From a virus, in UHGV virus genome UHGV-0083306: DNA of 26,813 nt; one strand, given 5' to 3'. Shown piece by piece: positions 8,581 to 19,666 of the stretch. A program made the translations under genes and the position numbers. How positions within the stretch are numbered: position 1 is the first letter of the stretch; the number at the start of each line of letters is the position of its first letter. The notes below the pieces were generated by a model. The model was not told the origin of the DNA. It saw only the letters and a list, made by a program, of their open reading frames with translations, and searched no databases.

Positions 8581-9072
8581 CTATCCCATACTGGAGAATT
8601 CACCATGATATTTTATCCTGGCATTTTCCATTGCCTTTCTAGCCTCCTCGATATCGTCAAAACACCCTACATGAATCCTTTTACCATTGACTCTAATTCT
8701 TCCAACCCACTTGTTTGCAGCAGAATTAAAAGTCACCCCCTTCACACCAGATGAATTGTTTTTCCTCATCTTGCTGTTCCATGAGTTTTGAGTGTTAGTA
8801 ACAACACGAAGATTGGCTATCCGGTTATCAGACCTATCACCATTAATATGGTCAATCACATCGGTTGGCCAATCATTGTAAACCATCAGCCATGCAATTC
8901 TATGGACATATAGCCGCATTCCATAAAGTTTTACCTGCAGATATCCATTGGTTTTATAGCCAACAACAGCGCCATAGATAAATCTAGAGGACCGAGGTGG
9001 ATTCTTCCATGTAAGAATTCCAGTATCTGGATTGTAATTAAAAAGTCTCAATGCATCTTCACGTTTTAACAT
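8581..9072 (-). CDS. HNH endonuclease with AP2 domain (homing-endonuclease-like), inserted in the late leader
   Basis: 163-aa ORF with HNH motif DVIDHINGDRSDNRIANLRVVTNTQN and AP2-like C-terminus (SGVKGVTF…KWVGRIRVNGKRIHVGCFDDIEEA); visibly AT-rich; lies between pR' and tR'. Confidence 0.8.
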   Translation of the reverse strand: MLKREDALRLFNYNPDTGILTWKNPPRSSRFIYGAVVGYKTNGYLQVKLYGMRLYVHRIAWLMVYNDWPTDVIDHINGDRSDNRIANLRVVTNTQNSWNSKMRKNNSSGVKGVTFNSAANKWVGRIRVNGKRIHVGCFDDIEEARKAMENARIKYHGEFSSMG

Positions 9073-16352: not shown

Positions 16353-16491
16353 GACCTTTCTCCTTCTGCATCAGCTTCACTTTTTCCAACTCAGCCCGGA
16401 ATCGACCAGGCTGCTTGAAGCTGGACAGGAAGCGATCACGTAGTATGTGTTTGTGAATTTTGTCCTGGTAAGGACTGAGTGGTTTTGTCAT
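16345..16491 (-). CDS. small basic ORF (48 aa) coupled to O
   Basis: [48 protein letters not shown]; strong SD GAGGAGG; start overlaps the upstream stop (TAATG) and the end overlaps the O start. Below the ORF-track cutoff. Confidence 0.35.
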
Positions 16492-16895
16492 TAAGCCTCC
16501 TCTACTTCGTAATCAGCGAAGTAACCAGTAGACATTTTTAAAAACCTTGATTCGGTGACTGTGTAAGCCTTCCTTCCTTTCCTCTCCTTGCCTTCAGGCT
16601 CTATGAGGTGGCACGAATAAATGATTCTGCGCTGCCAGTTGCCTGGCATTTCCACCACTGCCAGAACCTCAAGAATTCTCTTTCCTTCAGCATCAGCGGT
16701 GTAAAAACACTGATCACCATAACCACAATCGGCTGGCTCATAATTTTTGTGACAACCGCCAATCCAGCGCTCATCGGTATGCACGTTGCCGTCATAAGAC
16801 TGATAATCTGTGCATACGAAGATAAATGGATATACGGTTTCGAACTTGTCACCGGCCTTTATGCCGGTGTTTACTTGCTTGGTTTGTCCTGGCAT
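16491..16895 (-). CDS. hypothetical protein (134 aa) between cII and O
   Basis: Start at MPGQTKQ with SD AGGAG 5 nt upstream; the longer track ORF overlaps cII in another frame. Cys/His-rich (…[18 protein letters not shown]…CHLIEPEG); no family recognised. Confidence 0.5.
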
Positions 16896-16929
16896 AATTA
16901 CTCCTGTTACTTGGCGTAACACAGTGTGC

Positions 16930-17208
16930 TTAAGCGTCCAGACTGCTACCAACAGCTGGGCGTTTTTCTTTTGTGAGAATCGATGCCACCTGCTGAGCAA
17001 GTCTCGCCATCTCATCATCAACAACTCCCCATTCAAGAACAGCCAGAAGCATGGCCATCTTTGGGATAAAGCTGTCTTTCCATCGCGAAATTTGCGATTC
17101 ATTAATCCCTAACGCGTCGGCAACCTTTCGCTGACCACGTACAGCAATTCGATTCAGGATGTTGCTTGTAATTGCATTCGCTTTCTTGCGAGTACTTGTA
17201 AGTTGCAT
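16930..17208 (-). CDS. cII: transcriptional activator CII
   Basis: 92-aa ORF; …VADALGINESQISRWKDSFIPKMAMLLAVLEWGVVDDEMARLAQQVASILTKEKRPA closely matches lambda CII; upstream leader matches the lambda cII leader. Confidence 0.85.
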   Translation of the reverse strand: MQLTSTRKKANAITSNILNRIAVRGQRKVADALGINESQISRWKDSFIPKMAMLLAVLEWGVVDDEMARLAQQVASILTKEKRPAVGSSLDA

Positions 17209-17287
17209 ATGTAAGTATTTCCTTAGATAACAATTGATTGAATGTATGCAAATAAATGCATACACCATAGGTGTGGTTTAATTTGAT

Positions 17288-17319
17288 GCCCTTTTTCAGG
17301 GCTGGAATGTGTAAGAGCG
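17288..17319 (-). promoter_or_regulatory. nutR (boxA and boxB)
   Basis: Minus strand reads CGCTCTTACACATTCCAGCCCTGAAAAAGGGC, i.e. lambda boxA plus the nutR boxB hairpin, between cro and cII. Confidence 0.8.
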
Positions 17320-17327
17320 TTGATAAC

Positions 17328-17558
17328 TTAAGCAGCCATTAATTCAGGCCAGATGCTTTCCCAATCAACCGGATGAAGGTCTTTGCGAGTCACTTCACCA
17401 TTGCTGAACTTCTCAATCAGAACACAAAGTGCTGCGCCCAATTCATGATTACGGCTAAGTGCTTTCCTCAAATAGCCGATAGAAGTTCCGCACTTGGTGG
17501 CAAATTCTCTCTGCTCTTCCAGTGAAAGGGAGTTCAGATACAAGCGGAGTTCTTCCAT
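17328..17558 (-). CDS. cro: Cro-like repressor (HTH)
   Basis: 76-aa ORF divergent from the repressor gene, with an HTH-like segment (EEQREFATKCGTSIGYLRKA); not lambda Cro in sequence. Confidence 0.65.
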   Translation of the reverse strand: MEELRLYLNSLSLEEQREFATKCGTSIGYLRKALSRNHELGAALCVLIEKFSNGEVTRKDLHPVDWESIWPELMAA

Positions 17559-17590
17559 TTGCTATCTCCTTCCCGTTGTTGAATAAGGTG

Positions 17591-17660
17591 AGTTTACCTG
17601 CAGGTAAAAAACAAATCAATACCCACAGGTTATTTACCGATAGGTAATCAAAGATAGAAT
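17591..17660. promoter_or_regulatory. right operator/promoter region: OR1-OR3, pR, pRM
   Basis: Operators TTACCTGCAGGTAA (17594-17607), ATACCCACAGGTTA (17619-17632), TTACCGATAGGTAA (17634-17647). pR on minus: -35 TTGATT 17614-17619, -10 TAAACT 17591-17596. pRM on plus: -10 TAGAAT 17655-17660, 6 nt before the cI ATG. Confidence 0.55.
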
Positions 17661-17666
17661 TAAATC

Positions 17667-18353
17667 ATGGATAAATACGAACAAAGACGACTAAGGCTGA
17701 TAGAGATAAGAGACCGATTCTGTAATGGAAAGGCCTCAGAGTTGGCTCGTCGAATAGAAAGGGAACCATCATACGTTTCCAGAATGCTGTATCCGGAAGG
17801 AAAAAGCGGAAAAAAACGCATTGCTGACGATATGATGGAACTAATTGAAAAATCTTTTAATCTCCCACGCGGATGGATGGACATGCTTGCAGATAGCAAA
17901 GTTGGATCTGCAGACCATCTTGAGTTTGCGGGTAACGTTCGTGCGGGTTTTGTTCCGGTAATTGGTGAAGCCGTTTTGGGAGTTGATGGCTCAGTGGATA
18001 TGATTGAATTCAGATCCGGTTGGTTAAGCATCTACAGTGGCGATAAAGATGCTTACGGTCTGAAGGTTAAGGGTGACAGCATGTGGCCAAGGATTCAGTC
18101 AGGAGAATATGTTGTTATTGAACCAAATACGCCAGTACATCCAGGTGATGAAGTCTTTGTAAGGACCAAAGATGGTCATAACATGATAAAGATCATGAAC
18201 AAAACAAGAGACGGAGACTATCAGTTTAGTAGTATAAACAGCGATCACCGTCCAATCACTCTTCCTGTTGAAGAAGTTGATAAAATGCATTTTGTTTCAG
18301 CTATTGTGAAACACACTAGGTACGTAGACCAGGACGATCTGCCAAAATTTTGA
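17667..18353 (+). CDS. cI: CI-like repressor (HTH + S24 LexA-type autopeptidase)
   Basis: 228-aa ORF; N-terminal HTH (ASELARRIEREPSYVSRML), Ala-Gly in the linker (EFAGNV), C-terminal S24 motifs (KVKGDSMWPRI, …MIKIMNK). Immunity specificity is not lambda's. Confidence 0.85.
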   Translation: MDKYEQRRLRLIEIRDRFCNGKASELARRIEREPSYVSRMLYPEGKSGKKRIADDMMELIEKSFNLPRGWMDMLADSKVGSADHLEFAGNVRAGFVPVIGEAVLGVDGSVDMIEFRSGWLSIYSGDKDAYGLKVKGDSMWPRIQSGEYVVIEPNTPVHPGDEVFVRTKDGHNMIKIMNKTRDGDYQFSSINSDHRPITLPVEEVDKMHFVSAIVKHTRYVDQDDLPKF

Positions 18354-18367
18354 GGATAAAGCAGCAA

Positions 18368-18664
18368 ATGTTTATACCAGGTATAGTGGTCGCTGTTGTA
18401 ATCATCTGCTTCATATGGGCAAAGTTATCTCCTGTAAGCTCTAAGCATACAGCTGAACTCATGAAGAAGAAGCATCTTATACATGAGGCAGAAACGATAA
18501 TTAAGAAGTTCAAAGGCATGTCATATGACGACATGTCATCAGATCAGATTGCTATGTATAAATGCGCCATTGAGCGTCTTGACTACTTAAACGGACTCAA
18601 ACCCAAACACACCCCGGTAGAATCAAAATTGCCGCAATGGCCAAGCAATCCAAATAGCTTCTGA
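18368..18664 (+). CDS. small membrane-anchored protein downstream of cI (rex position)
   Basis: 98 aa from ATG 18368 (SD GAGGA); N-terminal hydrophobic helix (MFIPGIVVAVVIICFIWA); same strand as cI and followed by a terminator. Confidence 0.5.
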   Translation: MFIPGIVVAVVIICFIWAKLSPVSSKHTAELMKKKHLIHEAETIIKKFKGMSYDDMSSDQIAMYKCAIERLDYLNGLKPKHTPVESKLPQWPSNPNSF

Positions 18665-18675
18665 CATCTCCTTTC

Positions 18676-18697
18676 AGCCCGCAAAGCGGGCTTTTTT
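18676..18697 (+). terminator. intrinsic terminator ending the cI operon
   Basis: AGCCCGC AAA GCGGGCT followed by TTTTT. Confidence 0.65.
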
Positions 18698-18717
18698 ATA
18701 TCAATCCAAAAAATTAA

Positions 18718-18802
18718 TTACCTGAAAATTCAAACAGGTAAACTCTCACACCAATTTTATTTACCTGCAGGTATAGACAACAGTTTTACCTGTAGGTATA
18801 TT
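18718..18802 (+). promoter_or_regulatory. left operator/promoter region: OL sites and pL
   Basis: TTACCTGCAGGTAT (18761-18774) and TTACCTGTAGGTAT (18786-18799), plus a wider inverted repeat TTACCTG-N10-CAGGTAA (18718-18741). pL: -35 TAGACA 18774-18779, 17-bp spacer, -10 TATATT 18797-18802; transcript then lambda-like (ATCAGCAGGACGCAC…). Confidence 0.55.
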
Positions 18803-18842
18803 TTAAGCCATCAGCAGGACGCACTAACCACCATGAAGGTGA

Positions 18843-18873
18843 GGCTCTTAAAAATTTAGCCCTGAAGAAGGGC
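18843..18873 (+). promoter_or_regulatory. nutL (boxA-like and boxB)
   Basis: GGCTCTTAAAAATTTAGCCCTGAAGAAGGGC: boxA with one mismatch, then the lambda nutL boxB hairpin GCCCTGAAGAAGGGC. Confidence 0.8.
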
Positions 18874-19141
18874 AGCATTCAAAGCAGAAGGCTTTGGGGT
18901 GTGGTGAAGCCAGCTAGTCACTGGCAAGTGCTTACCTACTGTTGAGCGGTGAAGCGCTCCCAACGCTAGCAATAGCGTGGACGAGATGGGGAGCCGCGGG
19001 CGATAAGGCCGCCATAACGCGCACGTTGTCGCATGGAAAAATCACTGGGGTGCCGGTTATACCCCTCCGAATGAGACTCAACAAGCTGGAGCTAGACTAC
19101 CAGCCACCACACCACCAAAGCTAACTGACAGGAGAATCCAG

Positions 19142-19474
19142 ATGGATGCACAAACACGCCGCCGCGAACGTCGCGCAGAGAAACAGGCTCAATGGAAAGC
19201 AGCAAATCCCCTGTTAGTTGGGGTAAGCGCCAAGCCAGACACCCGCAAAATTCTCTCGCTGACTCGAAAGCCTAAATCACGCGTAGAAAGCGCTCTGAAC
19301 CCGATTGATTTAACGGTGCTGGCTGAGTATCGGGAAGAGATGGAAAAACGCGCTGAAGCTGTTGAGCGCAAGAATCATCGCACATGGTACAGCAAGCCAC
19401 GCAGTGAAATGGGGGTGACTTGTGTTGGTCGCCAGAAAATGAAATTAGGCAGTAAGCTACTGTATGAGGGGTGA
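19142..19474 (+). CDS. N: antiterminator N (lambda-type arginine-rich motif)
   Basis: 110-aa ORF; MDAQTRRRERRAEKQAQWKAANPLLVGVSAKP… matches the lambda N N-terminus; C-terminus diverges. Confidence 0.85.
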   Translation: MDAQTRRRERRAEKQAQWKAANPLLVGVSAKPDTRKILSLTRKPKSRVESALNPIDLTVLAEYREEMEKRAEAVERKNHRTWYSKPRSEMGVTCVGRQKMKLGSKLLYEG

Positions 19475-19477
19475 GAT

Positions 19478-19666
19478 ATGCATAAATGTCAGTTCTGTGG
19501 ATACATGTTTGAATCAAATGAAATGCAACGTATTTCGTTAAACCTTATCGGTAGGCCATACAACATTTGCCTAGGATGTAGCGAGAAATACAAAAACAAA
19601 GACATGTGGGACGACAATAAAAACGATATCGACTGGAATAAAGTGCCATGTATTGATGATAGTTAA
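19478..19666 (+). CDS. small zinc-ribbon protein (62 aa)
   Basis: Two CxxC pairs (CQFCG…CLGCS); good SD GAGGGGTGAG; immediately after N. Confidence 0.5.
   Translation: MHKCQFCGYMFESNEMQRISLNLIGRPYNICLGCSEKYKNKDMWDDNKNDIDWNKVPCIDDS

Follow-up and report, generated by a model that had tools for sequence, protein, structure and literature searches.

Putative operators and a conserved split palindrome in an immunity region of the mEp043 type

The UHGV virus genome UHGV-0083306 (26,813 nt; this whole stretch is called the window below) contains a lambdoid immunity region, which was analysed from about 16900 to 19500 and whose switch module spans 17320-18808. With high probability, the region serves a lambda-like prophage as its lysis/lysogeny switch, belongs to the mEp043 immunity type and was recombined between lambda-type nut and leader sequences. 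Divergent genes, cro on the minus strand and cI on the plus strand, flank a three-site operator, a second operator is located at pL, and N/nut antitermination signals are present directly downstream of both pL and pR. The operator set also includes, judging from its sequence and conservation, a wider palindrome upstream of pL, TTACCTG-N10-CAGGTAA, referred to here as the split element.

From cro to pL the module is 96.9% identical at the nucleotide level, over 1,551 bp, to Escherichia phage mEp043 (JQ182734 / NC_019706 / PV340537; Aguilavirus mEp043), one of the Mexican lambdoid phages gathered to span various immunity groups. The first-pass annotation of this DNA had recommended that the repressor be compared with known lambdoid immunity types; the comparison leads to mEp043, whose CI is 98% and whose Cro is 100% identical in amino acid sequence. 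By sequence, then, the module represents the mEp043 immunity type. Of 5,426 complete E. coli genomes, 52 (approximately 1%) contain it with about 97% identity or more, and a prophage of E. coli ECONIH4 has a copy that is 100% identical.

The sequence of the module is thus already public, and it presents an ordinary lambdoid control region and a textbook mosaic substitution, the split element being the one unusual feature. The mEp043 records annotate cI, cro (as "prophage antirepressor" in one of them) and a putative PL, with the operators unannotated, and the literature searched contained no operator description or analysis for this immunity type, operator sequences included, nor any results on its repressor binding, transcription starts or repressor cleavage. 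What is new here is modest: the operator map, the joint movement of the repressor N-terminal domain, Cro and operators accompanied by swaps of the C-terminal domain, and the split site with its conservation. A sequenced immunity type, found in about 1% of complete E. coli genomes, thereby gains assigned operators and promoters and a probable scheme of regulation.

Putative operators and promoters

The first-pass annotation had described TTACC-N4-GGTAA operators in a lambda-like arrangement, with one site over the -10 of pR, two near the -35 of pRM and two across pL, and the five sites lie exactly as claimed (Table 1). The exact consensus, TTACCNNNNGGTAA, occurs twice in the window, as OR1 and OR3, against 0.02 occurrences expected. 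When up to two mismatches are allowed, the pattern has 15 matches against 6.9 expected, and five of them constitute the putative right (OR) and left (OL) operators. Another 14-mer with two mismatches, TTACCTGCAGATAT at 8931-8944, is operator-like as well; it lies far from the immunity region and is probably a chance match.

OR1 overlaps the -10 and the spacer of pR, OR2 adjoins the pR -35 and is followed closely by the pRM -35, and OR3 covers the -35 and the spacer of pRM. On the left side, OL2 touches the pL -35 and OL1 is placed between the -35 and the -10. Centre to centre, 25 bp separate OR1 from OR2 as well as OL1 from OL2, and 15 bp separate OR2 from OR3. Only two canonical 14-mers are found at pL, so that there is no canonical OL3. 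The inferred pL start, near 18810, is by alignment the base homologous to +1 of lambda pL, and the -10 of pR is conserved in relatives (AGTTTA on the plus strand).

The -10 of pRM ends at 17660 and the ATG of cI is at 17667, in agreement with the 6-nt distance noted at first pass. The leaderless cI mRNA suggested from this distance is supported by ten relatives: in every relative examined, a -10 of the form TAnnAT precedes the cI ATG by 6-7 nt and no Shine-Dalgarno sequence is present. The cI transcript is probably leaderless.

Conservation was assessed at loci whose CI is 54-98% identical and which come from Enterobacter, Klebsiella, Cronobacter, Pantoea, Hafnia, Ewingella, Yersinia and Rahnella. 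The scan of species-representative genomes yielded no relatives of 70-85% identity, and these were obtained by exact-protein look-up. In all relatives the three OR sites precede the cI ATG by the same distances (-74, -49 and -34), and 25 bp separate the two pL sites. Ungapped alignments (ten relatives for OR, eight for OL and the split element; CI identity 54-100%) revealed that 27 of 30 half-site columns in OR and 19 of 20 in OL are invariant. None of the central N4 columns is (0/12 in OR, 0/8 in OL), and among the columns between operators 2/12 and 5/11, respectively, are invariant. Almost all relatives share the two deviations of OR2 (ATACC...GGTTA). In relatives from Yersinia and Rahnella the recognition helix reads AESVISRMLY instead of EPSYVSRMLY, and the half-sites read TTACT/AGTA in OR, in OL and in a far-left half-site described below. 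The conservation of the 14-mers beside homologous repressors of other phages, on which the first-pass annotation had made its operators depend, is therefore found at the same positions, and in one lineage the half-sites co-vary with the recognition helix. We interpret the five 14-mers as the putative CI/Cro operators of pR, pRM and pL, an interpretation which their sequence, position, conservation and co-variation all fit.

Many relatives (loci L088, L090, L106, L107, L110 and L160) contain in addition a lone half-site, TTTACCT, about 21 bp (two helical turns) from OR1, placed after the start of pR and ahead of the ribosome-binding site of cro. It is absent in the window.

The repressor, its Cro and the split palindrome

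That CI and Cro are not those of lambda, as stated at first pass, is borne out: CI matches lambda CI only over 55 amino acids of the S24 domain (31%), and Cro has no similarity to lambda Cro. The nearest characterised relatives of CI are the repressors of H-19B and 933W, which align with it over residues 11/20-221 at about 49% identity, for the most part in the C-terminal domain; Cro has a weak relationship to the Cro of H-19B. A sequence search of the PDB with CI gave no match. The AlphaFold model of CI (predicted local distance difference test, pLDDT, 79) contains an N-terminal domain of four helices, in which residues 23-29 and 34-40 make up a helix-turn-helix (the second segment corresponding approximately to the recognition helix), and then a disordered linker of 19 residues (75-93). 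This helix-turn-helix is seen in the model only and is not recognised by Pfam. The C-terminal domain of the model gave Foldseek matches to LexA and to the C-terminal domain of lambda CI, and G136-D137-S138-M139 and K175 are invariant among 52 homologues. As modelled, CI is composed of an N-terminal helix-turn-helix domain and a C-terminal S24 autopeptidase with a Ser138/Lys175 dyad. Motif alignment to LexA (VGRVAAG-EP) would place its cleavage site at L104-G105 (VIGEAVLG-VDG), with A88-G89 and A93-G94 as alternatives; the repressor of 933W is reportedly cleaved at a Leu-Gly bond.

Cro is inherited together with the operators, with 63-100% identity in relatives. It remains about 80% identical even at loci where the whole CI is only about 40% identical; there, the N-terminal domain of CI is conserved and the C-terminal domain exchanged, which means that the operators track the DNA-binding domain of CI too. 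At the loci of such chimeric repressors, OR, OL and the split element are unchanged. Sequence comparison thus indicates that one DNA-binding domain is inherited as a unit with its Cro and its operator set and that the C-terminal domain attached to it is exchanged between a 933W-like, a lambda-like and a third type. Repressors joining the N-terminal domain of the window to a lambda-CI-like C-terminal domain (FPLISWVSAGQW...FWLTVKGDSMTSP...LKPLNPHYP) are encoded by the viral-contig loci L106, L107, L110, L114, L122, L162, L178, L215 and L218-L237. L160 has the same N-terminal domain joined to the third type.

The wide element TTACCTG-N10-CAGGTAA, which had been left unexplained at first pass, is real and is the sole match to its pattern in the window; it proved to be a conserved part of the operator set. 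The centres of its half-sites are 19 bp apart, against 9 bp in the operators, and this difference of one helical turn places both half-sites on the same face of DNA. Two types of relatives can be distinguished, type A with the same operator type and no canonical OL3, and type B with a canonical OL3 and a lone far-left half-site. In all eight type-A relatives chosen by protein similarity, TTACCTG-N10-C(A/G)GGTAA is located exactly 19 nt upstream of OL2, and invariant columns account for 10/10 of the half-sites, 4/14 of the spacer and 3/19 of the next 19 columns. The four type-B relatives (Ewingella-like, Yersinia and Rahnella) possess the far-left half-site at the same position, with a canonical or degenerate 14-mer OL3 about 19-20 bp downstream of it, and this half-site reads TTACT wherever the operators read TTACT. 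Together with the lone half-site of the cro leader, it suggests a recurrence in this family of lone half-sites at a distance of about 19-21 bp from an operator.

A pattern scan of viral contigs returned 120 loci, of which 26 encode the N-terminal domain and Cro of the window and 94 are unrelated chance matches. OL2 at +19 and OL1 at +44 were confirmed for 22 distinct sequences among these 26, and ten of the 26 loci encode chimeric repressors. Because such a scan is biased by construction, the test was repeated on loci selected for their similarity to the chimeric protein, and the split element is present in the same place in each of the 19 distinct sequences (21 loci) with a locatable OL pair. 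No clear split site was found upstream of OL2 in 933W, H-19B and the Erwinia and Pantoea relatives with N5 operators; the nearest approach to one is a degenerate AATC-N5-GATA, which precedes OL2 by about 32 bp, and a single aTATC-N15-tATAA in Erwinia. On these comparisons the split element belongs to the operator set, and it follows the DNA-binding domain and Cro across three kinds of C-terminal domain. A role as RNA hairpin or terminator was considered and rejected, since the element lies downstream of the terminator of the cI operon and upstream of pL, where transcription is not expected.

Proposed switch and alternative readings

How the switch would work we infer throughout, from binding, activation and cooperativity to the cleavage site, the transcription starts and the binding of the split element. 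In the lysogen, CI would be made from the probably leaderless pRM transcript together with the product of a small membrane-type open reading frame (ORF), orf98. CI dimers would bind the 14-bp TTACC-N4-GGTAA palindromes, OR1 and the weaker OR2 covering pR, and OL1 and OL2 covering pL. The centre of OR2 is at about -41.5 from the putative pRM start, a location that lambda CI uses for pRM activation, and OR3, a perfect site, covers the pRM -35 and should therefore stop cI synthesis at high repressor levels. Upon DNA damage, the S24 domain (Ser138/Lys175) would cleave the repressor, and pR and pL would fire. Cro would then be made and occupy the same sites, with N acting at the lambda-type nutL and nutR. 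The split palindrome would stand in for the missing canonical OL3.

For this last step, the probability that the split element is a split third left operator, bound by CI and/or Cro in place of a canonical OL3, seems to us just short of even. More tentative is the idea that TTACC-N14-GGTAA is a true repressor site at which one CI dimer, or two cooperating ones, would straddle the extra turn of A/T-rich, possibly bent DNA, the bending being due to integration host factor (IHF); we consider it possible rather than probable. The disordered linker of 19 residues makes a dimer spanning the split half-sites physically conceivable, and alternatively two dimers might each place one DNA-binding domain on the element. 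If the element is an operator, a split OL3 would tune pL or the long-range communication between OL and OR in a family of enterobacterial prophages, whichever C-terminal domain their repressor has. If the repressor can use half-sites one helical turn further apart, this would also bear on repressor levels in phages without a canonical OL3, such as 933W.

Several observations weigh against the proposed switch or parts of it. OR2 and OR3 are only 15 bp apart centre to centre, so that their simultaneous occupancy and a lambda-style activation from OR2 are assumptions. The pR match is only 8/12, and promoter-like matches in the region are no more numerous than in shuffled sequence; the promoter calls are consequently based on where the motifs lie and on their conservation rather than on enrichment. 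Half-sites 19 bp apart are too distant for a rigid dimer to bridge, and the four type-B relatives demonstrate that the split form is not universal. Finally, a TCA in the spacer of the split element is invariant, and the spacer is similar to a weak IHF core (one or two mismatches); a host protein could thus be the real ligand.

The last point leads to another reading of the split element, namely an architectural site upstream of pL, either for IHF or as an UP-like A/T tract as in lambda, whose operator-like half-sites would be incidental or secondary. The A/T-rich spacer agrees with it, as do the sequence (A/T)ATCAAT-N3-GTA of many relatives, one or two mismatches from WATCAANNNNTTR, and the A6 tract preceding the element. 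Lambda DNA at the equivalent position (-100 to -66 from pL +1) is identical at 23 of 34 positions, and IHF sites upstream of lambda pL are documented. IHF binding cannot explain, however, why ten half-site positions are invariant and most of the spacer is variable, why the half-sites match those of the operators exactly, or why the far-left half-site becomes TTACT in the lineage with TTACT operators. Moreover, the window is two mismatches from the IHF core, and the equivalent stretch of lambda has no match within one mismatch. We regard a purely architectural role as unlikely, although IHF binding and a split operator are not mutually exclusive. It is very unlikely that the element is instead a promoter, whether rightward and similar to lambda pL2, using TAAACT after CAGG, or leftward, using TTTACC-16-TAATTA on the minus strand. 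At 18735-18745, CAGGTAAACTC repeats the pR -10 region (17590-17600) exactly in inverted orientation, and in most relatives GG is followed by TAAACT, TAATCT or TAATTT. Nevertheless, TAAACT has no acceptable -35 at 16-18 nt upstream (the candidates are AATTAC and ATTACC), a promoter scan found none at the split element on either strand, and the promoter-like arrangement fails in type-B relatives.

A more general objection would be that the 14-mers are Cro-specific or structural palindromes and that the S24 protein represses through other sequences. Cro is indeed conserved beside the operators at least as well as CI, also at the loci where CI has diverged to about 40% identity. The operators nonetheless also track the N-terminal domain of CI, which is kept where the C-terminal domain is swapped, and no other repeated motif is common to OR and OL; to our knowledge, all lambdoid phages characterised so far have operators common to CI and Cro. 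This objection we hold to be very improbable.

Boundaries with lambda and relation to known systems

The switch region is reversed relative to the standard lambda map. From left to right, its order is cII, the nutR/tR1/cII leader, the cro-like gene, a 108-bp intergenic region, cI, orf98, a terminator, the pL region, nutL, a long N leader and N (Table 1).

Table 1. Coordinates of genes, signals and putative operators in the window (an empty strand cell marks a palindromic site)
Feature	Position	Strand	Remarks
cII homologue, 92 amino acids	16930-17208	-	Pfam Phage_CII, E = 4.5e-43; 65% amino acid identity to lambda CII; ATG at 17208 (ORF list); flank, outside the immunity substitution
Lambda-identical block: nutR (boxA 17312-17319, boxB 17288-17302), tR1 region, cII leader	17206-17319	-	114/114 identity to lambda
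cro-like gene, 76 amino acids, helix-turn-helix	17328-17558	-	phrog_35 transcriptional repressor, E = 7.5e-16; weak YdaS-type helix-turn-helix match (Pfam)
pR: -35 TTGATT (17619-17614), 17-nt spacer, -10 TAAACT (17596-17591)	17591-17619	-	Identified by eye; 8/12, below scanner threshold
OR1 (putative), TTACCTGCAGGTAA	17594-17607		Exact consensus match; half-sites invariant in 10 relatives
OR2 (putative), ATACCCACAGGTTA	17619-17632		Two deviations from consensus; centre -41.5 from inferred pRM start
pRM: TTTACC-16-TAGAAT	17633-17660	+	Consensus scan; no Shine-Dalgarno
OR3 (putative), TTACCGATAGGTAA	17634-17647		Exact consensus match; 1 bp from OR2; over pRM -35 and spacer
cI repressor, 228 amino acids	17667-18353	+	Pfam Peptidase_S24 (PF00717), E = 1.4e-17
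orf98, 98 amino acids, hydrophobic N-terminus	18368-18664	+	phrog_10450 (function unknown), E = 1e-55
Intrinsic terminator closing the cI-orf98 operon	18676-18700	+	7-bp stem with 6 GC pairs, then T run
Split palindrome TTACCTG-N10-CAGGTAA	18718-18741		About -92 to -69 from pL +1; 19 nt upstream of OL2; putative third left operator
OL2 (putative), TTACCTGCAGGTAT	18761-18774		Match with up to 2 mismatches; conserved in relatives
pL: TAGACA-17-TATATT	18774-18802	+	Best promoter match of the region, 10/12; putative PL in mEp043 record
OL1 (putative), TTACCTGTAGGTAT	18786-18799		Match with up to 2 mismatches; conserved in relatives
Lambda-like pL leader with nutL (boxA 18842-18849, boxB 18858-18872)	18809-18903	+	92/95 (96.8%) identity to lambda
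N antiterminator homologue	19142-19474	+	Pfam N36, E = 9e-23; 79% amino acid identity to lambda N, residues 1-32 identical; flank

Comparison with lambda by BLAST and alignments confirmed the sharply bounded replacement that had been proposed at first pass. No similarity to lambda was detected by these means in 17320-18808, and this stretch is a mosaic replacement with sharp borders between lambda-type nut/leader DNA. On one side of it, the block from the cII ATG to nutR boxA is identical to lambda throughout (mEp043 differs there); on the other, the block from the base before the lambda pL start to nutL is nearly so, with one substitution in nutL boxA. One joint is located 8 bp beyond the stop codon of cro, the other at the start of pL transcription. 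The accompanying description of the flanks as lambda-identical holds in part: the nutR/cII leader is identical and the nutL/pL leader near-identical, but the cII and N coding regions are not, their proteins being diverged homologues of those of lambda (Table 1). The N homologue has the arginine-rich motif of lambda N.

In the N leader, 18904-19094 (plus strand) consists of about 190 nt of non-lambda sequence. This insert replaces the interior of the long N-leader stem of lambda (GGGGTGTGGTG...CACCACACCAC) and is predicted to form a branched fold closed by the lambda-type stem (z = -3.0). It is also found in mEp043, and a Yersinia relative (L092) has another version of it. A search of 16900-19500 against Rfam, with E up to 1, gave two sub-threshold chance matches only and no known RNA for either the insert or the wide element.

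The small gene orf98, probably co-transcribed with cI, occupies the slot between cI, which it follows directly, and the terminator; in lambda, rexAB is located there. Pfam and PADLOC gave no match to it, nor did PADLOC to cI. PGAP did not call orf98 in the identical ECONIH4 prophage. In relatives the slot contains other genes or none, which suggests a variable accessory-gene site. Within cII, a pRE-like TTGC-N6-TTGT recognised by eye at 17186-17199 (plus strand) has the position of the CII-binding site of lambda pRE and is followed by a lambda-identical -10, AAGTAT; a second, perfect TTGC-N6-TTGC is present 24 bp deeper in the gene, at 17162-17175 (plus strand). Between cII and the DUF2740/O genes, an ORF of 134 amino acids with a good Shine-Dalgarno sequence (16491-16895, minus strand; phrog_30464, function unknown) has no counterpart in mEp043.

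The closest known system, phage mEp043, shares with the window the operators, the split element, the terminator, orf98 and the N-leader insert, and within the operators only the central N4 bases vary. The window differs from it in its lambda-identical nutR/cII leader, another cII allele and the additional 134-amino-acid ORF. The remainder of the window, with P22-like head genes, is a mosaic unlike mEp043.

With 933W and H-19B the module has in common a homologous S24 C-terminal domain, at the CI identity of about 49% given above, and their N-terminal domains are different. In phage 933W, OR comprises three sites and OL only two canonical ones (PMC3317979; PMC5977221), and OL3 was reported to be lacking (PMC5977221). 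The 933W operators, like those of H-19B, are 15 bp long and symmetric about the central base pair (PMC3317979 for 933W). The operator patterns of 933W and H-19B are CGTAC-N5-GTACG and TTATC-N5-GATAA, whereas the putative operators here are 14 bp long with N4 and TTACC/GGTAA half-sites. Because of this difference in length, the module falls, by sequence, outside the 933W/H-19B operator class and represents a different specificity on a related scaffold. Three family traits are nevertheless common to the module and the Shiga-toxin phages, namely a gap of only 1 bp between OR2 and OR3 (H-19B; L095, 1912-1942), a perfect OR3 and the lack of a canonical OL3 (933W). At a separation of 1 bp, dimers on OR2 and OR3 would sit on nearly opposite faces of the helix, here and in H-19B.

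The Rhizobium phage 16-3 C repressor reportedly accepts operators with 4-bp and 6-bp spacers. It offers an analogy only, one specificity with two half-site spacings; the extra spacing in the split element, if bound, would amount to a full 10 bp.

Lambda resembles the module in gene order, divergent promoters, a tripartite OR with a weaker OR2 and an accessory gene downstream of cI, as well as in the identical or near-identical nut sites and leaders. By sequence the module is not imm-lambda: apart from the S24 fold its CI and Cro are unrelated to those of lambda, and its putative operators are 14 bp long in contrast to the 17-bp TATCACCGCCAGTGGTA-type operators of lambda. Lambda, 434 and P22 have three canonical OL operators, whereas the module has two, with the split palindrome at the third position. 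OR and OL are about 1.2 kb apart here and 2.4 kb apart in lambda. The distance between OR1 and OR2 is about 24 bp in lambda and 25 bp here, and that between OR2 and OR3 is 23 bp in lambda and 15 bp here, leaving a gap of 1 bp between the latter two sites instead of the 6-7 bp of lambda. The cI mRNA of lambda is leaderless, with the pRM -10 abutting the cI ATG, and the same geometry is found in the module described here.

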